From: Pseudogymnoascus verrucosus | Taxonomy: Eukaryota | DNA length: 64,000 bases | NCBI GenBank assembly: GCA_001662655.1 | Contig: KV460252.1 | Reading direction: 5' to 3' (one strand) | Shown: piece by piece, positions 4,558-57,912 of the stretch | Layout: the number at the start of each line of letters is the position of its first letter | How positions within the stretch are numbered: the first letter of the stretch is position 1 | Notes under the pieces: model-generated | The model's input: only the letters and a program-made list of their open reading frames with translations | Database searches by the model: none | What the model was told of the DNA's origin: nothing | Program-made: the position numbers and the translations under genes

Positions 4558-7500
4558 ATGAGAGTCGGAAGGATATGGGGCGTAAGTTTACGTATTTAAA
4601 GCGTGATATAGTCAATGCTGATGCTTAATAGGAATCCCCTCGCTCTTCGATTTGCGCGTTTTGCGCCCATGGGCTGGGACCAGCCAGGGCACCGTCACAT
4701 ACCGCACGACGCTTCCTACAAACATCGAACTCGAAACTGAATTCATCGGCGGCTGCGGAAGCGCGCCAATCTCAGGGTTCTGATGATAGGCCACAGCTGC
4801 CCACGTCTCAATCCGCAGGAGCAGCCTTCTCAACAGGGGGGGGGTTCGGTCGGCCTGCGTTCGGCAGCCGGCCAGCATTTGGAAACACAGGCGGCGGCGG
4901 GGGTGGCGCGGTTGCCGGATCTGGACGTCCTGCATTTGGCTCGGGGCAGATTGAGTTGACTGAGGATGAAAAGAGGTTGAGGGATGCGCTGAAGACACAA
5001 GGAGAGGCTGAGGCGCAAACCCAAGCCCAGTCCAAACCGTCAAAAATACGAAGACCACTCAAGATATACGGTGGGGCTGGTCCTGAAGCATCAAGGGCAG
5101 GGCGCCCAGAGCCCCTCGATCGTGTACAGAATGCGACAGTTATGGCGAAGGAGGCACGACTGGAAAGGGCGAGGCAAATGAGTGCTGGGAGGCGAAAACG
5201 TAATGAGGCTTTACCTAAAGATACCGCAGATGGTACACCACGGTCCTGGAACCAGCTGAACAGGCGTGTTTTAACCCAAGGTGAAGGCTCCGATAACATC
5301 CCCAAAGCCGGATTACAGGATGGCGATCACCACGAGTCAAGGGGATATACGTCGCCCTCTGCAAGAAACCCATATACGCGCCAACAGCAGCAACCCGAAT
5401 TTTCTTCCCACAGGCAAATCTCTATAAATAAGTCGTCCTCAGACGCGTCTACACCAGGACCTGCACCGGAACCCCAGTTGACTACTTGGCGAGCTGCACC
5501 CCAGAAGGTCGAACCTGAGCTTAGCCCGGCGGTGCTAAGGTTACGACAAGAGGAGATAGAAAGAGCAGCGGAACTAGAGCAACGGCAGAAACTACGTGAG
5601 CAACGCCCACTACAGCGCTCGGCCGAACACTCGGCGTCGTCCTCCCGTGAAAGCGAAAACCTAGGCTTCAAGGGCCGTGGTAAAGACAAGAAGAAAGATC
5701 GCCGAAGAGAAGAATTTGCCACAGAAGAGGACGACCACGTAAACGCTGTCGTCGATCGAAAGGGAGAACTAAAGAAGGAAAGGAAAGCGGCGAAGGCGGC
5801 GAAGAAGGCTGCTGCGCCTACCCCGGTGCTATTGCCGGAATATATCAGCGTTGCGAATCTGGCCACGGTGCTTAAGGTTCGCTTGGAACATTTCGTCGAG
5901 AAGATGGAGGAGTTGGGCTTTGAGGAGACGGGAACAGATTACGTTCTCAATGGCGAAACTGCTGGACTCATCGCCCAAGAGTATAACTTTGAGCCGCTCA
6001 TTGACCGCAGCGAGTCGGAAGACTTGAAGGCTAGACCAGCTGCTGAAGATCCGTCAATTTTCCCTCAAAGAGCCCCTGTCGTGACGATTATGGGACATGT
6101 TGATCATGGGAAGACTACGATCCTAGATTACCTGCGAAAATCGTCAGTTGCGGCAGGTGAAGCAGGAGGTATCACTCAGCATATTGGAGCCTTTTCAGTG
6201 CCTATGCCATCCGGAAAGGTCATCACATTTTTAGATACCCCAGGTCACGCGGCATTCCTCAATATGAGACAGCGAGGTGCAAACGTCACAGATATTGTCG
6301 TCCTCGTCGTTGCAGCTGACGACAGTGTCAAACCCCAGACGATTGAGGCCATTAACCACGCCAAGGGCGCTCGCGTCCCCATAATCGTCGCCATTAACAA
6401 GATAGACAAGGAAGATACCAACATAGATCGCGTGAAGCAGGATCTCGCTCGTCACGGCGTGGATATTGAAGATTATGGAGGCGATACCCAGGTTGTATGC
6501 GTGAGCGGGAAAACGGGACAGGGCATGGATGAGCTTGAAGAAGCTGCCCTCACTCTCTCAGATGTCCTCGATATGCGGGCCGACACTAAAGGTGCAGCTG
6601 AAGGCTGGGTCCTAGAAGCTAGCATCAAATCAATGGGCAAGGTTGCCACGGTTCTGGTCCGGTGCGGCACCATGCGCCCGGGCGACTTCATCGTCGCAGG
6701 CAAGACCTGGGCACGCATCAGGTGCATGCGCAATGAAGCGGGGATTGAGATTACAGAAGCTGGTCCGGGAACCCCAGTCGAGATTGACGGGTGGAAAGAG
6801 CAGCCGCTTGCTGGTGACGAGGTTCTCCAGGCACCTACGGAACAGAAAGCAAAGAACGTGGTGGATTACCGAGTTGAGAAGGAGGAGCGCGATCGCTTGG
6901 CAGAGGATATGGAGGCTATTAATGAAGACCGCAAGATTACGCATGAGAAGAGAACGAAGGAGAAATTGGAACTAGAAGCCTCGAAGAAGCGCACCGCTGA
7001 AGAGAATGCCGAGCATGATGCCCTAGAGGAGGTTGATAAGGAAGAGCATGGGCCAAAGCAGGTCTATTTCATCCTTAAAGGCGACGTCTCTGGATCCGTG
7101 GAAGCGGTTACTGACAGCATCGCTGCGATCGGCAGCAGCGAGATCCGGCCGGTAATACTGCGTTCGGGTGTTGGCAACCTCTCCGAGTTCGACGTTGAGC
7201 ACGCGGCGGTTGCAAAGGGATTTTTGATCTCGTTCAACAATACCATTGACCCTATGATCCAAAAGAAGGCCGATGCGGCGAAGGTCAAAATTCTAGACCA
7301 CAACATTATATACCGACTTGTGGACGACGTGAAGGGAACGTTATCGGAGTTCTTGCCTCCGATTGTAAGCCATAAGGTCTTGGGAGAGGCCGAGGTTGCG
7401 CAAGTGTTTAATATTACGATTAAAGGGCGCAAACAGAAGCCGATTGCAGGGTGCAAGGTACGCAATGGAGTTATAGGACGGAACACCAAGGTACGGGTGT

Positions 7501-17536: not shown

Positions 17537-20500
17537 ATGGCGGAGGATGATGCGGAGATTGCGCTCTTGCATCAGATGCAGAGTGGGCAAGAGAGCGTGT
17601 CGTGGGGACAAGGCGCAGATGATACAGAAGAGGGTGTTGGTGCTACAAATACAGAAAATAGCGACCAAGCTGTGAAAGAAGAAGAAAAAGATTTCTCCGA
17701 TGATCAAGTCCTTCGTGCTTTATCCCCATCTGATGCTCTGTCTGATGGCGAAGAATATAATCCGGAATCAGCCAATCCAGTTCCAAGTCACACAACTACG
17801 AGTCTAGCTGGCACGGGGCCTCCATCCAGAGCGTCTCCGGCGCGAAAGCCCAAGACCATTGGTGGGTTCTTGGCAGATGACTCTGACGACGAAGATGATG
17901 TTGAGATTGCGACGTCAAAGTCGACTGCACTTCTCCAGCCCCCGACCAGTGGTCCAACTCGCTCCGTGTCAAGATCTCCTCTACACCTCGAAGCTGTGCC
18001 TCAAGACTCTGCAGCTCAAACCCCTGTTCCGACCTTGGAGACTCCTAACCCCCTAGGTGATGGTGAACAAACTAGCGCTAGTGTCTCCAATCAAACTTCT
18101 ACTCCCAACGCCTCAGCAACTGTCACTGCACCAATCGCAGGTACTAGCTTACCCAAAGCACGGCTTCCCCATGATAGAGTAGGTATCTTAGAGGACCGAA
18201 TCAAGGAAGATCCAAGGGGCGACTTGGATGCCTGGCTCTCCCTCATCACAGAACACCGAAATCGCAACAAGCTGGATGATGCTCGGGTTGTTTACGACCG
18301 GTTTTTCAAAGTGTTCCCCATGGCGGTATGAAATCCAACCACCAGCTTCTATTATCCCTAGGACTTTTCGCTGACATCAATGACAGGCTGATATTTGGGT
18401 TGCCTATGCTGAAATGGAGTTGGGCATTGACAACTTCTTCGCTGCGGAGCAGATCTTTGGCAAGTCGCTACTCACAGTACCCCATGTCCAGCTATGGTCC
18501 GTCTATCTCAATTATATTCGCCGCCGCAATGACCTAACCAACGACGTCACTGGATCTGCACGGGCGACCATATCACAGGCATATGATTTTGTGTTGGCAA
18601 ACGTTGGCATTGATAGAGACTCTGGCAAAATTTGGCAAGAATATATTCAATTCATCCGCAGCGCCCCTGGACAGATTGGAGGCAGTAGTTGGCAGGACCA
18701 ACAAAAAATGGATCAAATGCGCAAAGCTTATCAACGTGCCGTTTGTGTTCCAATGTCTAACGTAAATGCTCTATGGAAAGAGTACGACCAGTTTGAGATG
18801 AGCCTGAACAAGATTACTGTGCGTCCAAGTCTATGAAATGGTTAATAATCGCAACTGACATGTGTATAGGGCCGGAAATTCCTTCAGGAAAAGTCTCCAT
18901 CGTACATGACAGCAAGAAGCGCAAACACTGCGATGGAAAATATTACACGCGGCCTTGTGCGTACTAATCTCCCACGCCTCCCTCCGGCACTCGGCTTTGA
19001 AGGGGACAAGGAGTACCTGGAGCAGGTTGGCTTTTGGAGACAGTGGATCAACTGGGAACAAGAAGATCCTTTAGTCTTCCGAGACGAAGATATTCAGGCC
19101 TACAAACAGAGAGTCATTTACGTCTACAAACACGCGGTTATGGCATTGAGGTTCTGGCCAGAGATGTGGGTTGAAGCTGCAGAGTGGTCCTTCAACAACG
19201 GCATGGAGAAAGAAGGCAACGATTTCTTAAGCCAAGGGATTGCTGCGAATCCAGAGAGCTGCCTTCTGGCCTTTAAGCAAGCTGATCGCTTGGAGACCGT
19301 GCTGCCAATGGAGGAAGGGGAAGAAGGCCTTGTCAGCAGAGGAGCTGCCGTCAGGGCTCCATACAATACACTGCTTGACGCGTTGTATGATTTAATAAAG
19401 AAGCTGAAAACCCGCGAAAATGCAGAATTGGCTAGAATTCAAGAGTTTGCGATGCTGGATTCATCCATCAATCCTGCCTTTGATAGGGGGGACGATGATG
19501 AGGATGATACCGACAGATTACTGAAGGAGGCAAAAGAATCCGCACGAGACAACCAACTGAAGGTTGTGAAACAAGGGTATCACATGCAGTCGGAACTGAC
19601 ACAGCGCACGCTGTCATTTGCATGGATTGCTCTTATGAGAGCTATGCGAAGAGTGCAGGGTAAAGGCAAAGTCGGTGCCCCTGTTGGTGGCTCACGCCAG
19701 ATTCTGAGCGATGCCCGTGTCAAAGGGAAGATTACTAGCGATGTATACATCGCCAGTGCTTTGATTGAGCACAACGTATACAAAGACCCGGCTGGGACAA
19801 AGATATTCGAGAAGGGCGCAAAGCTGTTTCCAGAAGATGAACTATTCATATTGGAATATCTCAAACACCTGTTGTCCATTGGCGACACTACAAGTATGTA
19901 TACCAAGAAACCCCAACTGTTCGCATATTCTAACAACTCATAGATGCCAGAGCCGTCTTCGAGACATCCGTGAATCGACTCACCCAGAAACCTGAAAACG
20001 TTGCAAAAGCCAAGCCACTCTACGTGTTTTTCCACAAATACGAGTCAGAATATGGTGAACTTTCTCAAATCAACAGGCTGGAGCAACGAATGGCGGATTT
20101 GTTCCCAGAAGACCAAAGACTCGCGAGGTTCTCATCGCGATACTCCTCTGAAAGATTCGACCCTACTGTTGTCCGTCTAATCATCTCACCAGTGGCACAG
20201 ATGCGTCCAAAGTCTATCATGCAGTCTATCGAAGAGCCGATTTCGGTGCAGCCGAGCCCAAGGCCGCAATACAGGGAGGTTAGCCCCCGTCCACAGCCCC
20301 GACAGGAGGTTAACCCCATCCCGGCTTATTTACAGCCAACAAACTCTCCAAAGCGCCCGCTTGGAGGAGAAGAATCTGACAACGAGTCTGGCCGCCCAAG
20401 GAAACTTGTTCGTGGGGAGTCACCCCTGAAAGGAGCTGCAGGTCGCCGCCTGGACCAACAGAAGAGGATGCAGCAGACTCACGGCGGCGTTCAACAGTGG

Positions 20501-20692
20501 CAATCCAACGGTCCAGCACAGTTCATGATTCCCAGGGATATCACATTTTTGCTCAGCATCATCCCGCGGGCAGAGACATATAACGCCACGCTGTTCAACG
20601 CAGAAGCTATGGTACGACTACTGGACAAAACGCCCATTCCGGATTACAGCACTTGGAAGGCGTCGCGTGACCAGGCGCCAAGATATTATTGA
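17537..20692 (+). CDS. RNA14: mRNA 3'-end processing factor Rna14 (CstF-77 homolog, HAT repeats), 4 exons
   Basis: RLPHDRVGILEDRIKEDPRGDLDAWLSLI, VQLWSVYLNYIRR, WQDQQKMDQMRKAYQRA, ALRFWPEMW, WIALMRAMRRVQG and FHKYESEYGEL. GT-AG introns near 18326-18387, 18820-18869 and 19894-19943. Confidence 0.94.
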
Positions 20693-22004
20693 GGAGGGAC
20701 GGGGCTTGTATGTTGAAAGGATTTACGGTGAATGAGGGTACAGAAGATCTGTGGATTTGTATTATATGAGGGAGATTCGGGACTGAAGATGGCCAGCATG
20801 GAGTTGTGCAGGGAGTTGTTATCTAGGAAAGGTGCATTAGTGGTTCGCATAGCCAAAATGAAATCAGGAACCCTGGTATTGTTCATTTGTTTTGCTTCAT
20901 TTGTGATGGTTTCCTATGCTATTATGTTATGCTACGTCTAAGAGAGCTTACATCAAGAAATTCTCAGATATGAGAAGACAGCCGTGTTCACTTTAGTCCC
21001 GTTGTTCTTATATTTTCATATCTGTTACCTTCATAAGGCCCAAGATAGCAATAAGAACAGATTAAAGCCTCTATTCAAACTGGCTGGTAATATAATTCAG
21101 GTGCTCCTTTTCATATATTCAATATACTTCCTAGAACTGAGTTCTATTTGAAGACTTTCATTACCCTGTGGTATCACATGGTCTCTTGCAATACCTTAGT
21201 TATTTGGCCTCACAGTTCCAGATTAAGCAGGCACGCTATCACACCCGGTCCTTCCTCCCTTCCCTTCTTGTTATCCTCAGGTTTCCTCATTAGTAGAAGG
21301 AGAATAATAAGAAAACTACGCTAGCTTAGCGCCATTGGGGCCGAATATCTTGTTGTTGGGCCCCTTTGTCCACCACCTTTTTCTTCTACAGCTTCCTCTC
21401 TTCCTTTCTTCCTTTCTTCTTTTCTTACTTTCCATATTTCGCTCTTTGCCCTCTACCTCGGGGGGCTCAAACCCAACCAAAGCTCACTGCTCTTCATCAT
21501 ATTTACAAATCTCAGGCAAGATAGGCTCTCCAACTCTCCTCTTGCCTGCTTCAGGCTTCAACTCTCTGTCAAGACTCGTTCAGGCTTGTTGCAATACACA
21601 ACAACCAATACAATAACTCGCACATCAAACCAAACACCTACCCACACAGTAATACGCCGTAGTAGTTCACACGCTCAGCAATTGTAAGATCAGCAACTCT
21701 GCAACTCACTTGCTCCTGACAATATATGCTAACTCAATTGGTGATTTAGGTGATCCAGGCATAGCCTCATCTCAGAACGTACATAACTTCGATCTGAGAG
21801 CTGAAACTCTCATTTTTATTTGATCCAAGTGAGTTTCTATTCCAACTCATAGTCAGGAAACATCACTTGATGTGAATTGGGCCTTACGGCTACTGGAATA
21901 CAATCTTTTCATATCAAGCTGAGACGCATCATCTGATAAACTATTCTAACAAAGGTCACAGGAATATCTGTTTGTCGCCTGACAAATAACTCTGCAAGAT
22001 ATCA

Positions 22005-22619
22005 ATGGCATTTCCAGAGCGTCCCCTTCGTGGGCGAGTCGAGCTCCCTGTTCAATGGATTGTGAATGGAGATGGGACGGTAAGTTTTCAACTTTTATTT
22101 CTATCTTTCATCTGTATCTGCCTTTGATTTGTCTTCGGGATCACCATGCACAAACTGTTTCTATCATTTCTCCATACCGCGTGTTACTCCACACGCATTG
22201 TGTTTTATTTTGGGTTGTTTGCCATACCTGATATGAGCTTTCATACCCGTTTCCCAGTCGCAGAGATGAGGAAGCATGGCACATGCATCATGTGGGACTT
22301 GGGAATTGGCAAGCGCTATTCTCATCTTCTACTGCCGATTCCACTGCCGATTATAGGCGCATATTGCCTTGCCATTCTACCGATTCTAAGTGTCAACCCT
22401 CAGTAGTCGGGCAACTACCCGGCAAATTCGAGGGTATATATTCGTGGCCGAGCCAGACTTCCGACCTTCTTCCTTCTTCCTTTCTACACATCACACTTTG
22501 ACCAAGAACCTGAAGCCTTCGAAGACTTCCTTTCATACATTCATACATTCATACACTCAACCCATTCATCCTTTCAAACATTGCTATACACATCATCAGC
22601 CCAAAAAAATCATCATTAA
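22005..22619 (+). CDS. Putative spliced upstream ORF (95 aa) in the Argonaute leader
   Basis: Exon 22005-22079 (25 codons), intron 22080-22406 (GTAAGT...CTAAG...CAGTAG) and exon 22407-22619 give MAFPERPLRGRVELPVQWIVNGDGT|SGNYPANSRVYIRGRARLPTFFLLPFYTSHFDQEPEAFEDFLSYIHTF...NHH*. Splicing is predicted, not observed. Confidence 0.5.
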
Positions 22620-22725
22620 CCCGTGATATCACTCAGTGATATCACAACTACCACATCTCATATTCATCTCCAGTATCCTTTGCCTCATTCTTATCCAAGT
22701 TATCTTTATTCAACCCGACTTCATC

Positions 22726-25700
22726 ATGGAGCCAGGTCATCTCTGGACGTATAACCGCGAGTCTAACGTGAAGAAGTTCGAGTTCCCACCGGTCCTCCCA
22801 CCCCGGCCCAGCTACAATTCCGACCCCGGAACAAAGAGTGTCACCCTCAGAGTGAACCAGTTCCGAATTTCTGAGTGGTCAGACAAGTCGGTCTGGCAAT
22901 ACGATGTACGTTAACCTCACTCCCAACTGAATCTATTCATATTAACCCCATGCCAGGTGAAGATTGGATCTGGAGCCGAAAACCGCGGTCTCCTCAAGGT
23001 TGTTTGGAACAGCAAACCCGTTCAGGAATTCTTGGCCGGCCATGCGAAATACTGGCTTTGGGATGGGAACAAAATCGCATGGTGCGACAAGCCAACCAAG
23101 AAGATGAACTTTGAGAAGAAGATCACGGTCAACCTGGATGAGCTCAAGGGCAGACAGCCTCGAGTCATCAACGGCGTCCCCAAGCCGGACATAACATTTG
23201 TCACCATCAAGTGCACCACGGAAATCCCAATGGGAGTCATTCGAGCCTACTTGTTCAAGGGAATGGATTTCGACAACACCGTCCTCATGGCAATCAATTT
23301 CTTGGACCACTGCCTTCGCCAATGGCCATCGGAGAACTTCATCCAAGTCAAGCGCTCTTTCTTTCCGAGAGGCACTCAGAGACAGGTTCTTCATGGCCTG
23401 GCCACACTCATCGAGGCACAAAAGGGTGTTTATTCGTCCATCCGCCTTTGCGAATCTCCCAGTACTCCGGGTGCCCTGAGCACAGGTCTTGGTGTCAATG
23501 TTGACGTCGCCAATGGAACATTTTGGGTACCCCAACTTCTCAGTCAAGCAGCTCGCAACTTGACTTACGAGAGAAACTCTGGCTTGAACTGGGATGTGTT
23601 CTCAGAGAGTCTGAGACCTGTCCCAGTGAACGGCAAAAAGACCAGTTCTGGTGCTCAGTACCACATCATGTCGAGGGAATTCAAGGAGCTTCGCAAGCTT
23701 CACAAACTTCGATTCCACGTCAAGCACCGCGGAAAGGAGCAAAATGAGCGAGTCTATCAGGTCAAGAACTTTGTCTTCTCCCCAGATCAGTACGGTTCAT
23801 GGGGTGGCCATGCCAAAGCAGTCACCTTTGAGAAGAAGGACCCTCAGAATCCTAACGCCACCGCAAAGGAGATAACCATCTACGACTACTTTGAGAGGAC
23901 ATACAATGTTACTCTCCAATACTGGAAGCTGCCATTGGTGCAGACAGTCAAGGGTGGAATCTTCCCAATGGAACTCTGTACCATTGCACCAGATCAGCGC
24001 TACATGTTCAAGTTGGATCCCAAACAGACTGCGGATATGATCAACTTCGCAGTCGTTCCACCGAACCAGCGCCTGGAATCCATTAGAAAGGGGGTTGACT
24101 TGCTGAGCTGGGGCAAAGATCCATACCTCAACCACTACGGCATCAAGATCGAGAGCACTCCGACTATCACGACGGCAAAGCAACTGCAGCCCCCGGATAT
24201 CCACTTCGGAAAAACCTCACAGAAAACAATTGTGAAGCCAGGCTTTGCTGGGTTTTGGACCCTCGATAGAAGCCAGCTGCTGTTGGTTCCACCGAAGCCC
24301 TTGAAGAATTGGGGCGTATTCATGGCTGCGGATAGAAATGGAAGACCAATTGTCACCGAGCCAAGATGGGACGAGTTCATTGCCACTTTCAAGCAGCAGT
24401 ACATTGCCCTCGGCCACAAGGGTGCCATTCCGGACCCAAGGAAGTTCTTGTTCAACAGTGACAATATCGAGTCACAGATTGACAGACTGCTGGCGCCGCT
24501 TGCTTCCACCCCAGAGAACATTCCTCAGATTTTGTTGTTCATTGTCCCAGATAAGAACTCTTGGACTTATGACAGGATCAAGAAGCACATGGATTGCAAA
24601 TATGCTCTCGTGTCGCAGGTCATGGTGAAGGGACACATCGAGAAGAACAACCCGAAGTATTGCAAGAACGTCATCATGAAGCTCAATGCCAAGCTCGGTG
24701 GCACGACTAGCAAGGCCTGCAAATCCAATGCGAAGGAGCCTACGTTCTTCAATACGCCTGGTCAGACCGCAAAGAACCTTGTGATGATGATTGGCGCCGA
24801 TGTGAGCCACCCTGCCCCTGGCTCGGAGCAGCCGTCTTTTGCAGCTGTCACCATGTCTCTTGATAGCGACTGCTGCAGATATGCGGCAGCATGCGAAGTC
24901 AATGGCTTCAATAAGGAGATGATCCAAAAGCATGTCTGGGACAAGAAGGTCAAGGCAATGGTCAACTGGTGGCTGGAGACTGTCGGAACTGTCAACGGCC
25001 AAAAGAAGGTTCCATCCCACATCTACTATATGCGCGACGGTGTTTCCGAAGGTCAGTACTTACAAGTGCTCAACGATGAAGTCAAATGGCTCAAAGACAT
25101 GTTGGAAACCGTGAACCCACAGTTCAATCAGACTAAGTTTGCTGTGGTTATTGCATCGAAGCGCCACCACATCCGTTTCTTGCCACGAACTGAAGACCAA
25201 TGCAAAGACAAAGACTTCAATCCTTTGCCAGGAGTTCTGGTTGAGCACGACATCACTCATCCATTCCAGTACGATTTCTACCTCAATGCCCACAAGGCAA
25301 TCAAGGGAACTGCTAGACCAGTTCATTACCACGTCATTCTCGACGAGGTCAAGCACAAGCCCGGCCAGCTTCAGGAGATGATCTACGCACACTCATACCA
25401 GTATATGAGATCCACGACGCCCGTTTCCATTCACCCAGCTGTGTATTACGCACACTTGGCATCCAACAGAGCCCGTTCTCACGAGAACGTTCCAATCGTT
25501 GACGAGCCTCGTGGTGGTCAAAAGGCTATGGAGAGAAGACAGGCAGCCAAGCTTGAGAGCGATTTGAGACTGGAGAACGCGTCTGAGGGTGGATTGACCG
25601 CCAAGCGCTCGTCTGGCAAGTCGCCATCGACTCAATACCAGATGGTGGAGAATGAGGTGATTGGGAAGTTCTGGAGAGAGCAACCGCAGCCGGTGAGATT

Positions 25701-25746
25701 TAAGGCGCTGACCCAGGCGTTCTTGTACGGCATGTGGTACATCTAG
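22726..25746 (+). CDS. ago1: Argonaute (N-PAZ-MID-PIWI) with intact DEDH tetrad; probably SMS-2/S. pombe Ago1-like clade
   Basis: N-domain VNQF..WQYDV; PAZ (TIYDYFERTYNVTLQYWKLPLV..FPMELC); MID (RIKK..VSQV..MKLNAKLGG); PIWI GADVSH, KEMI, YMRDGVSEGQ, KRHHIRF, GTARPVHY, RSTTPVSIHPAVYYAHLA; C-terminal MWYI. Intron about 22906-22956. Clade call is from recalled C-terminal signatures. Confidence 0.96.
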
Positions 25747-54805: not shown

Positions 54806-56880
54806 GTTGGCGATCTCAGATATGAGTGCGGGGAAAGGGATAGATTAGCCGTGGGTTTCTTCAACGATACCAGAGGGCGAGGGGGAATTATTGAAGAGGA
54901 GTAAGTGATAGGGTTCTGGGAATAGGAAGCAGAGATATATGTACAGCCAGTATGTTTGCTGGCCAGAAGTTTGAGAGAAATGTTTGTCAGAGAAGGTGTG
55001 CACACAGTATCACAGTTATCGGTCTGGAGGTTAGAAGGTAGAGGGGTTGATTGATACTCGCTCGCCATTTCGGACCAAGTTGGTCCGCCAAACGGAGGAA
55101 TAGTGCATCCGACATCGCATTAATCCATCTTCACATTCCCCATACGCACAAATTATACTATAAGAATTGTGATCTTATAAAGCATAAGATTACAATTCCC
55201 CATTTCCACAAAAAGGAGGCTTAGGAGGCTTTCCCACAAAGATCATCGCTGGATCCGCAATGTTTCTTCCATCTCGCGTGCGCCGACAGGGGTAAATTGT
55301 TCCATTGGCCTTCTTTTTTGGCTTTTTTGGAAGGGTCTCAGGTGGGCTGAGTAAGCGATATTAGCAAAGTCTGAAAAAAGGGCGAAAAGGGAAAAAGGGA
55401 CGGTTTGATCGGCAGCGTGGACCCCTATACGGTACGCTGAAACCGACGCCTTGGGGCCTTTTAAGCCCTTCAAGATCCCTATAATTTCGGGCCACAGAAG
55501 GTAATTGGGGAAATGACTTGGCGCGTCTGTTTTGGGGACGGGATTGAACTAGATGCGGCTTCTAGAGCGACCAAATGGGTCTGCGACTGCGACGAAGCTC
55601 CATGTGGATATGCACTCCGGCGAGTTTGAAGCTGACTGACGGGTGAGTTGACAGGACAGCAGCTAGTCCTGCCGTCGAGCACAAAAGACAGAAGAGAGGA
55701 CAGGACTGTGCTTTTTCTGCTCCGAGACAGCAAGGCGACGCACGGCGATAGGGTAGTTGTGGTAGTCCTGCTTGTTGTGTTAGTCCTGCTAGTTGAGCTG
55801 GTGCTGTATCGCACCTGTCATGGCATTGCAAATCATCGCGACAGGCTCTAAGACCGGACACCCCGAATGTCTCACAAAAGGGGCATATATATGAATAGCT
55901 ATGGAGACTGAGACTCTAGAAAATGACGCCGGCGGGACAAGCTCTGTATAACATCCGTATAACATCCGGTAGTAAATGGTAAACAAATAGATAAAATAGC
56001 TGAGCTAGGCCCAGAGCTGAACCCAGAGCCTAAACCAACACAGCAATTGTCATCAACATAGCATATATTACCATACCCAGGTCTTATGCACATGCAGCCT
56101 CACATTCCTCATCACAATCACATTCTTCTCCTCTCGTCCCCCAATCCCCCACGCTCATCTCCGGGGACGCACGTTCTTATCCCCTACATTCCTTTCCACA
56201 TCGCCTTCGATTGTGGGCGTCGTTCCCCCCTGTGTGACGACCCTTACTACTACCCCCTCTATCCCGTCTCCAACGCGACCAGTCAACTCTCCCACCTCTT
56301 GAATCCCACGATCTCCATCACACCTTTCACTTCGCATTTTACCCGCCCTGCTGCACACAATCGCACGGCCACCAACAAATATACCACAGGACGAAACGCG
56401 ACAAACACACCCGAATTAGCCAGCCCAACGAGGATCTGGCCAGCCTAACTAACCAAGGCGCCACTGTCAGCTGCTTGTCTGTGGTCATAAGCTCGGCATA
56501 CTGCAGCGACCGGCGCCACGCTACTGCACTGCACGCACAGTACCTGACAGAAACCCCTTCGACGACGATCTCAGCGCGCGGCCAACACACATCGCGAGAA
56601 CGACGGCGACGAGCCATTGATCGAGACGAGTGTCTGTGATTGCGACCGCAGTGGCTACGATTTGGCCTGTCGACTGTTTACACGACTGTCACGAGCCAGC
56701 GCGGAACGAGCTACATATATAGCCGGCACAGGCTACGACCACAACAACACGATCTTTCGCCCATAAACACCACGAAATACTCGAACATTGAACAGCCAGC
56801 GCCGCCCACAACGCGGGCGGTTCGCCCAGCACCTCCATCCTCACGCCCATCTCGGTAGCAGCCTGTAATCTCGACCCACG

Positions 56881-57912
56881 ATGACCGGCCCGGCCCCCTC
56901 CCCACAACCCATCGCCATAACACTGTTCGGCGCGGGCGGGAGCGGCAAGTCGTCGCTAACGCTATCACTCGTCCGCAATGCCTTCACCTCGACATACGAC
57001 CCGACGATCGAAGACAGCTACAGCATAACACGGCGGGTGGACGGCGTGGAGTATGTGATTACCATCACGGACACGGCAGGGCAGGAGGAATACCGCGGGC
57101 TGTGGGCGCAGGAGGCGCTGCATGCGGATGGGTTCGTGCTGGTGTACGACATTACGAGCCGACGGAGTCTGGAGGCGTTGGGGTGGTTTGAGGCGCTGGT
57201 GCGGGTGGAAGGGGAGTGTCGGGAGGAGAGGGCAGAGACGGCGCTTCGGCGGCGGATCGAGGGCAGTGAGCCGCTGACAAGGAGTACAACGCGGGTGGGT
57301 CGGTCGAGGCGTGGCACCGGGACGACGATCGTGAGCGAGGCGTCGGAGTTGAAGCCCGTCAAGATTGTGGCGGGGAACAAGGTTGACCTGGCGAGTTCTC
57401 GGCGGGTGCCGGCTCGAGAGGGTCTGGAATGGGCGCGGCGGCATGGGTGCGGGTTCATGGAGACGAGCGCGCGGGAGCGAGTGAATGTTGAGGAGACGTT
57501 TGGACTGATTGTGCGAAGAGTGGTGGAGGCGCGGAGGGAGGAAGAGCAGCAACGACTGGAGGAGGAGTATGCGAGGGCTACTCAAGAGAGGGAGATCCGC
57601 GGGGATAACAGACGATATACAGTCGACTGGACGGAAGAGAGTCTACGTTATCAGCGCGAGCAGGCGAGGCGACATGAGAAGGAGAAGATGGAGCAAATGC
57701 CGAGGAGGGATGCCGGGAGGAGCGGGCAGAGTCAAGAGCAGCGCGAGAAGAAGGTGCGGAGGAGGAAGTCGGAGGCAGGTGTTGGTGTGAGACATGCCGT
57801 GACGGCGCCGTTGAGCCCTCTTGAGATTGAAGGAAAGCGGATGAGGCTGCCAATACCACAAGGGGATATTGGGCCCCCGAAGAAGGGCTGGGCTTGGTTA
57901 AGGTGTTGGTGA
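56881..57912 (+). CDS. Ras-family small GTPase with inserts and a C-terminal -RCW (non-CAAX)
   Basis: G1 GAGGSGKS, G2 YDPTIEDSY, G3 DTAGQEEY, G4 NKVD, G5 ETSA. Intronless, 343 aa. Confidence 0.92.
   Translation: MTGPAPSPQPIAITLFGAGGSGKSSLTLSLVRNAFTSTYDPTIEDSYSITRRVDGVEYVITITDTAGQEEYRGLWAQEALHADGFVLVYDITSRRSLEALGWFEALVRVEGECREERAETALRRRIEGSEPLTRSTTRVGRSRRGTGTTIVSEASELKPVKIVAGNKVDLASSRRVPAREGLEWARRHGCGFMETSARERVNVEETFGLIVRRVVEARREEEQQRLEEEYARATQEREIRGDNRRYTVDWTEESLRYQREQARRHEKEKMEQMPRRDAGRSGQSQEQREKKVRRRKSEAGVGVRHAVTAPLSPLEIEGKRMRLPIPQGDIGPPKKGWAWLRCW

Follow-up and report, generated by a model that had tools for sequence, protein, structure and literature searches.

Alternative promoters and alternative first exons that give N-terminal proteoforms are a general eukaryotic mechanism, according to the accessible part of one account (PMC13082882). 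Three other kinds of arrangement are described in the available portions of the papers cited here: upstream open reading frames (uORFs) of the fungal arginine attenuator peptide type, in which a short conserved peptide is encoded upstream of the main open reading frame (ORF) (PMC6755093, PMC5487733); NAGNAG tandem splice acceptors, in which two AGs lie three bases apart (PMC2699507); and long undecoded transcript isoforms (LUTIs), 5'-extended transcripts from a distal promoter that run across the proximal promoter (PMC8153250). Among the titles and abstract openings returned by a literature search, none describes either alternative first exons or a uORF for an Argonaute gene of a fungus. Here we analyze the DNA upstream of an Argonaute gene in a stretch of 64,000 nucleotides from Pseudogymnoascus verrucosus (GCA_001662655.1, contig KV460252.1; the whole stretch is called the window, and positions count from its first letter). 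A first-pass annotation had proposed that this DNA hides a spliced 95-residue uORF, formed by 25 codons and 70 codons on either side of an intron, with a CAGTAG tandem acceptor that tunes Argonaute levels. Our data indicate that the 25-codon piece, exon 1a, is conserved and probably serves Argonaute as a distal, alternative first coding exon, and that the 70-codon piece is a chance open frame.

Results

Conservation of exon 1a

All positions are on the + strand unless stated. The ATG of exon 1a (22005-22007) opens 25 codons, the last base of which is 22079, and a GTAAGT donor follows at 22080-22085; left unspliced, the ORF from this ATG has 40 codons in the window. Relatives were found with the unspliced 40-codon ORF as the query against proteins longer than 70 residues, and four of nine candidates passed E <= 10. 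These four (P0125-P0128) are ORF calls of 166-247 residues from contigs of relatives, collinear with window 21885-22751 in hopping frames. Over exon 1a, 24, 24, 24 and 25 of the 25 residues are identical in P0125-P0128. In the 25 codons that follow the donor the counts are 19, 11, 6 and 6, and the drop in conservation falls exactly at the donor. V-S-F is kept in all four protein translations, which fits GTAAGTTT at the donor. Since an in-frame TAA (21987-21989) lies just upstream, ATG 22005 would be the start. The G content of exon 1a is 0.33 vs 0.16-0.19 in its flanks. Compared as protein, ATG 22005, the 25 codons and GTAAGT are conserved in the relatives as a predicted coding exon. The earlier claim of a hidden, spliced, ATG-started coding piece upstream of Argonaute holds to this extent, for exon 1a and its donor in four relatives, and fails for its second half, as the acceptors and the 70 codons are not conserved.

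In the P0126 and P0128 relatives a second ATG, in frame, precedes that of exon 1a by two codons (M-S-M-A-F-P...), at a place where ATA stands in the window; exon 1a may thus not begin at the same start codon in all relatives.

Possible relation to Argonaute N-termini

QDE-2-like Argonautes of Pezizomycotina (P0005-P0122) show two classes of N-terminus, long and short, on a shared body. Long forms read ...I-T-N-T-R-(M/V)-E-L-P-x-x-A-Y... and, after 7-12 residues, (Y/F)-x-F ... L-P-x-R-P; short forms, which include the form that starts at ATG 22726 of the window, read M-E-P-x-N-F-R ... K and then the same (Y/F)-x-F ... L-P-x-R-P. The orthologue pairs P0017/P0041 and P0018/P0012 have the same body and a different N-terminal class, and the gene models P0029 and P0072 read from a long-type piece through a short-type piece. 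These two classes suggest either a widespread two-start architecture or a systematic inconsistency of annotation.

Exon 1a shares a motif with the long class. This motif, R[MVIC]ELP, stands at the head of the long N-termini in 20 Leotiomycete orthologues. In all six frames of the window (118,675 residues) there is a single copy, R-V-E-L-P, and it lies in exon 1a. When the 40 residues were paired with P0006 by BLASTP, the best hit, a weak one, was residues 17-33, directly before the match of exon 1b, the first exon of the proximal Argonaute start. A profile built from 19 long-form sequences gave 26.5 bits to the downstream piece alone and 27.7 to the short form; with exon 1a joined at 22777 the score was 33.0 bits, a gain of 6.5, and with the junction at 22783 it was 36.7. 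The alignment spans the junction, and 33.0 bits was reached by 2 of 3000 random 25-mers from the window.

The position of the junction is suggested by frame and splice signals. The donor is in phase 0, and 22774, 22777, 22783 and 22957 are all in the Argonaute frame. A branch-like TCTAAC lies 9-10 nucleotides before AG 22775-22776. Both are kept in L001, a metagenome contig from a scan for related DNA that spans window positions ~22293-23410 and stops short of exon 1a; among the in-frame AGs (22772-73, 22775-76 and 22781-82), 22775-76 is the only one that L001 retains. In the column before the junction, K or Q is found in 13 of 22 short or read-through forms (background K+Q share 0.08), a count that depends on the selection of the 22 by hand after automatic long/short sorting had misassigned several. 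Such an excess, seen in protein sequences, is what AAG and CAG codons, which end in AG, would give. Three AGs upstream (22635-36, 22672-73 and 22698-99, within 22627-22726) were considered as an N-terminal extension of exon 1b and rejected, being out of frame with the phase-0 donor.

We consider it fairly probable that exon 1a is a distal alternative first coding exon that gives Argonaute a second N-terminus, with two promoters and with exons 1a and 1b on one body. In this model, the distal transcript would start further upstream, possibly near a CT-rich tract at ~21400, and would contain two small leader introns. Splicing from 22079 to AG 22775-22776 would skip the proximal promoter, leader and start codon, and would join the 25 residues in frame to the common Argonaute body from 22777. 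The two resulting proteins would be identical apart from their N-terminal tips, of which the distal one would correspond to the N-T-R-(M/V)-E-L-P type of long-form Leotiomycete Argonautes, and the proximal one (ATG 22726, M-E-P...) to the short-form N-terminus of other orthologues. What had been proposed as the second exon of the uORF would be the proximal promoter and leader, which the distal isoform would remove as part of its intron. We infer from the sequence which acceptor the donor is paired with, that there are two promoters and that the tips may differ in function.

The 70-codon frame

The positions given in the first-pass annotation were all correct, as judged by reading the sequence of 21400-23400 and translating both pieces. 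CTAAG is at 22386-22390, CAG at 22401-22403 and TAG at 22404-22406; 70 open codons (22407-22616) follow, and then TAA (22617-22619), which is 106 nucleotides upstream of the Argonaute ATG 22726 and in a different frame. With CAG 22403 as acceptor, TAG comes immediately after the 25 codons. The spliced ORF had been described as invisible in the six-frame track, but its 70-codon piece is listed there as a plain stop-to-stop ORF (22407..22619). The TAG proposed as the distal acceptor is the stop codon that bounds this frame, and an in-frame AG at the start of the 70 codons therefore comes free.

The intron that would precede this frame is unlike the short introns of the window. Ending at 22403 or 22406 it would be 324 or 327 nucleotides long, vs 50-83 nucleotides for reference short introns that were chosen by eye among the noisy candidates listed for the window, and CTAAG falls outside their CTRAY branch motif. 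Compared with the genome-typical set, it has the GTRNGT donor, and lacks both the CTRAY branch 8-30 nucleotides before YAG and the typical length; the intron signal scan did not detect an intron at 22080-22403/22406. Other acceptors were tried for the 22080 donor and rejected: 22257 and 22263 lead to a stop within 3 codons, and 22356 to a stop after 10.

Comparison with L001 shows no coding constraint in 22401-22619. The Argonaute exons of L001 are ~88-90% identical in nucleotides to the window, and the Argonaute intron is present, which identifies the contig as unspliced DNA. Searches of genome contigs and viral contigs for related DNA gave no match. The two ends of L001 (1-47 and 1149-1187) do not align to the window and resemble sequencing adapter. 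L001 has CAACAT in place of CAGTAG and CCAAA in place of CTAAG, and the proposed tandem acceptor and branch site are thus all gone in this relative. Over the 213 nucleotides of 22407-22619 the identity is 80.3%, vs 86.3% in the Argonaute intron and 86.8% in the last 106 nucleotides of the leader, and indels of +1, +2 and -5 shift the frame. Substitutions by codon position are 15/13/13 in the 70-codon frame, vs 4/0/18 in Argonaute exon 1b and 4/1/39 in the main exon; the ratio of nonsynonymous to synonymous divergence (dN/dS) is 1.68 over 35 gap-free codons of the frame, vs 0.04 and 0.02 in the exons; and the GC content at third codon positions is 0.41 vs 0.64 in Argonaute. The 70-codon half thus shows no codon-level conservation, and the 95-residue ORF is not a conserved coding unit.

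In a length-restricted homologue search, no protein of 38-123 residues shares words with the 70 residues. When the 70 residues were compared by phmmer with 1.84 billion representatives, the only two hits were P0123 and P0124 (1142 and 1882 residues, 16 and 20 matched stretches, 31% identity), the first of which is a tandem-repeat protein; we judged both to be weak similarity summed over repeats and not homology. As inferred from protein translations, both AGs appear to be absent from the P0127 and P0128 relatives, TAG alone appears to be kept in P0125, and both appear to be kept in P0126, the closest relative, which reads S-Q-stop. The P0125-P0128 proteins cross the 70-codon stretch in hopping frames.

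Open frames of this size are expected from the composition of the DNA. G is scarce in the intergenic gap (16% overall, 10% in 22407-22725), and stop codons are therefore rare there. The sequence of 21200-22725 was dinucleotide-shuffled 1000 times, and + strand spliced ORFs of 95 codons or more were present in 24 shuffles when a GTRAGT donor and a CTRAN branch were imposed, in 52 when any AG could be the acceptor and in 313 with relaxed donors. The 22080 donor itself yields ORFs of 112 and 101 codons with other AGs. A stop-to-stop frame of at least 70 codons was present in 2442 of 5000 random sequences with the composition of 22293-22725, and persisted in 3224 of 5000 runs of a neutral-evolution simulation. 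The homologous frame in L001 is open for 92 codons and is bounded by a different TAG, which is not evidence of coding, because neutral simulation keeps such a frame in so many runs. The spliced ORF is not beyond chance, and CAGTAG with its 70 codons is a chance open frame in G-poor DNA, not a coding exon.

Probable proximal promoter and leader of Argonaute

The region 22401-22619 has the appearance of Argonaute's proximal promoter and 5' leader. The 436-nucleotide gap between the ATGs at 22290 and 22726 is the fourth longest on the + strand. The non-coding DNA upstream of Argonaute shares perfect runs of 11-19 nucleotides with L001, among them the CGGGCAACTACCCGGCAAA block and an 18-nucleotide run (22457-22474) within the CT tract that follows the TATA-like sequence. 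Translations of the block (GNYPAK or GQLPGK) are also present in L001, P0125, P0127 and P0128, and P0126 ends before it; CGGGCAACTACCCGGCAAA is likely a cis-regulatory site. By its sequence and position, TATATATT could serve as a TATA box. This non-coding DNA (22293-22725) diverges by 13-20% from L001, vs a synonymous divergence (dS) of 0.57-0.73 for Argonaute (window 22726-23410), which suggests that promoter and leader DNA is unusually constrained here and would be consistent with a promoter role.

Two repeats were noted in the same DNA. The palindrome GTGATATCAC occurs twice in the proximal leader, at 22623-22632 and 22636-22645, spaced by 3 nucleotides, and the second copy alone is intact in L001. 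A tandem 12-nucleotide duplication (TTCTACTGCCGA / TTCCACTGCCGA) at 22327-22350 is a single copy in L001, which has a 12-nucleotide gap after 22330. A search of 20600-23000 against Rfam at E <= 1 returned 0 matches, and thus no known RNA or intron-hosted small nucleolar RNA.

Candidate distal leader

Upstream of exon 1a, the sequence fits a long, spliced, ATG-free leader that would feed ATG 22005. Only two ATGs occur between 21178 and 22005, one inside each of two candidate leader introns (Table 1). The exon-like leader segments, 925 nucleotides, hold zero ATG vs 7.4 expected. Two complete intron signal sets were found on the + strand and none on the - strand; at least two were found in 92 of 2000 shuffles. 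In the P0126 relative, the branch and acceptor of leader intron 2 are kept as translated residues. A CT-rich tract at 21390-21445, within an ATG-free stretch of 548 nucleotides (21178-21726), is a possible distal promoter or start zone of the long transcript. The two longest ATG-free stretches of the + strand lie elsewhere, at 56092-56881 (789 nucleotides) and 5320-5904 (584 nucleotides), and may be other long leaders or CT-rich promoters.

The Argonaute gene and its neighborhood

The downstream gene matches the Pfam domains ArgoN, ArgoL1, PAZ, ArgoL2 and Piwi in Argonaute order, all above cut-offs, and has 142 homologues at E <= 1e-20. Its proximal start and exon 1b are themselves coding: in 22726-22776, seven of the eight substitutions relative to L001 fall at codon position 3, with one residue change in 17. 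Exon 1b aligns to residues 31-69 of P0006 (E 3e-08), and its short-form N-terminus is common to ~20 orthologues. The Argonaute (22957-25743) is 45-49% identical to the best named proteins, all from Leotiomycetes, and 80% identical to P0003, a Logan protein; it may be a paralogue that has diverged, or its lineage may be poorly sampled.

The upstream neighbor on the same strand is a Suf/Rna14-type gene of mRNA 3'-end processing (18326-20692, stop codon 20690-20692), with short introns at ~18326-18386, 18819-18869 and 19894-19943. A gap of ~2 kb separates it from Argonaute.

Table 1. Positions of the candidate distal leader, exon 1a, the proximal promoter region and the Argonaute gene in the window.
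Feature	Position	Strand	Basis or remark
CT-rich tract, 8-nt period	21390..21445	+	direct-repeat families D1, D2
Candidate leader intron 1, 66 nt, GTAAGA ... GCTAAC ... TAG	21684..21749	+	full signal set
Candidate leader intron 2, 133 nt, GTGAGT ... TCTAAC ... CAG	21829..21961	+	full signal set
Exon 1a, ATG and 25 codons	22005..22079	+	proposed distal alternative first coding exon of Argonaute
GTAAGT donor, phase 0	22080..22085	+	relatives read V-S-F
Proposed distal-isoform intron, 697 nt	22080..22776	+	phase, branch/AG position, cross-junction homology
ATG-free stretch before the proximal Argonaute start, with the proximal leader inside	22291..22725	+	ATG scan
CAGTAG, tandem acceptor of the first-pass annotation	22401..22406	+	CAACAT in L001
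70-codon open frame and stop	22407..22619	+	chance ORF over promoter/leader DNA
Invariant 19-nt block CGGGCAACTACCCGGCAAA	22408..22426	.	19/19 identical in L001
TATA-like TATATATT	22435..22442	+	~290 nt before ATG 22726; TATATAT kept in L001
CT-rich tract after the TATA-like box	22457..22486	+	has repeat-family members
Exon 1b, proximal Argonaute start and 60 codons	22726..22905	+	dN/dS 0.04
Branch-like TCTAAC (22762-22767) and in-frame AG (22775-22776)	22762..22776	+	proposed 3' splice site, common exon from 22777
Argonaute intron, 51 nt, phase 0, GTACGT ... ATTAAC ... CAG	22906..22956	+	present in L001
Argonaute main exon and stop codon	22957..25746	+	Pfam domains, homologues

Discussion

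The present work suggests that exon 1a provides a second N-terminus for Argonaute, and a number of points weigh against this. The relatives came from a search restricted in length (>70 residues) and are a biased sample, and the conservation of exon 1a is at the level of protein, which does not separate coding selection from a conserved DNA element. ATG 22005 has T at -3, a weak start context. The five residues of the motif are what carries the homology to the Argonaute N-terminus: the single BLASTP pairing with P0006 has an E value of 0.49, a profile restricted to the motif region falls short of significance (rank 14 of 3235, E 13; with Leotiomycetes only, rank 4 of 3235, E 2.3), and the empirical p of ~0.001 for the joined profile is partly post hoc, the resemblance having been sought after BLASTP suggested it. 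The two-class pattern comes from automatic gene models, to which annotation differences or paralogues could contribute. Finally, the proposed acceptor is AAG, not the usual YAG, and the proposed intron has 697 nucleotides vs 50-83 for the clear introns of the window.

The same conservation could arise if 22005-22079 had no coding function and were either a conserved element acting as enhancer or RNA, or what is left of an ancestral first exon that is no longer used, in which case all Argonaute would start at ATG 22726 and the spliced ORF would be due to chance. Nearby non-coding blocks are also perfectly conserved in runs of 11-19 nucleotides, the non-coding constraint at this locus is strong (13-20% divergence vs an Argonaute dS of 0.57-0.73) and the stand-alone profile hit is not significant. 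However, a non-coding element would hardly be expected to keep an ATG and an open frame over 75 nucleotides, to end precisely at a consensus donor and to carry the N-terminal motif of the family, and the G content of this block is unlike that of all flanks; we regard this explanation as unlikely. A conserved-peptide uORF, in which the 25 residues are translated from an extended leader of Argonaute or from an independent transcript upstream, end soon after the exon and damp Argonaute translation in cis, is quite unlikely in our view. Such uORFs are known in fungi, as far as the available portions of the reports go (PMC6755093, PMC5487733), four relatives conserve the 25 residues, the leader ahead of them is free of ATGs and splicing to CAG 22403 brings an immediate TAG. 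Against this, the position of the stop is not conserved: counted from the same methionine, the unspliced ORF has 40 codons in the window, and in the relatives it extends over 131 to 245 residues. L001 lacks CAGTAG and, to judge by their translations, so do the P0127 and P0128 relatives. Nor does conservation extend along the whole peptide of the first-pass annotation, its first 25 residues being conserved and the remaining 70 not. A uORF would also leave the R-V-E-L-P motif and the in-frame Argonaute junction unexplained, and the conserved exon fits an alternative N-terminal exon of Argonaute better.

Two other splice partners were weighed. Exon 1a could be joined to the known acceptor of the Argonaute intron (22956^22957), skipping exon 1b and losing the L-P-x-R-P ... 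V-N-Q-F segment. Both sites are in phase 0 and the CAG acceptor with its ATTAAC branch is already the gene's own, but this splice removes a segment that is conserved in every aligned orthologue, and the cross-junction homology favors 22777 or 22783, which makes it very improbable. The construct of the first-pass annotation joins 22079 to 22407 and makes a microprotein or uORF of 95 residues; use of CAG or TAG would set the uORF at 25 or 95 codons and so tune reinitiation at the Argonaute ATG. The sequence permits it, and P0126, the closest relative, seems from its translation to keep S-Q-stop, but the acceptors, branch and frame are not conserved, dN/dS is 1.68, there is no homologue of comparable length and the open frame is expected from composition. 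By the rule usual for NAGNAG acceptors the upstream CAG would dominate, and the 95-codon form would therefore be a minor product even in this genome. We give this construct almost no chance of being correct.

A broader hypothesis, which we advance tentatively and consider rather doubtful at present, extends the alternative first exon to QDE-2-type Argonautes of Pezizomycotina in general. These would have two mutually exclusive starts, each conserved on its own, the distal one in an exon with the N-T-R-(M/V)-E-L-P motif, the proximal one lying in the intron of the distal isoform and its last codon (K or Q, AAG or CAG) doubling as the 3' splice site, and the tip would be switched by promoter choice, for example during development or virus infection. 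The window would be one instance, with an intron of 697 nucleotides that contains the proximal promoter.

A splice-gated 95-residue uORF that tunes Argonaute would have been a new regulatory device, and the evidence says that it is absent. The finding that remains is more modest: a fungal Argonaute gene likely has a second promoter and a first coding exon that annotation has missed. The locus hints that where Argonautes of Leotiomycetes, Lecanoromycetes and Dothideomycetes are annotated with long or short N-termini, these reflect a single gene architecture with two isoforms and not annotation noise. If this is true, gene models would be corrected, and the RNA-silencing field would gain a testable handle on Argonaute expression and on control of the N-terminal tip.

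Compared with described systems, each of which is taken here from the portion of its source that was available, the locus has both likenesses and differences. CAGTAG, with AGs three bases apart, has the form of a NAGNAG tandem acceptor (PMC2699507), but its use as an acceptor is putative and the candidate is lost in L001. Exon 1a resembles conserved-peptide uORFs of the arginine attenuator peptide type (PMC6755093, PMC5487733) in encoding a short conserved peptide upstream of a main ORF; it differs from them in having no conserved stop, in that conservation ends at the donor and in a frame that is compatible with the main ORF. The distal transcript would be like a LUTI (PMC8153250) in being 5'-extended from a distal promoter and running across the proximal one. 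LUTIs are poorly translated owing to uORFs in the extension, whereas the exon-like extension here is ATG-free until 22005, an ATG that can join the main ORF in frame, and the long isoform would for that reason be decoded.

Among the Leotiomycete QDE-2-like long forms (P0005, P0006, P0014, P0017 and P0018, for example), the likeness is R-(M/V)-E-L-P placed 7-12 residues before the (Y/F)-x-F ... L-P-x-R-P junction, and P0006 likewise has just 16 residues ahead of the motif. The exon of the window differs in being without the flanking I-T-N-T and A-Y, and without the long Gly/Arg-rich extension that most of these forms carry. With N-terminal proteoforms from alternative first exons, the locus would share two exclusive 5' coding exons with their own ATGs, a common body and a proximal start inside the distal intron, the difference being that the architecture here is predicted from sequence. 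Of the established kinds of system, namely NAGNAG acceptors, conserved-peptide uORFs, LUTIs and N-terminal proteoforms, it is the last to which the Argonaute exon pair would add.

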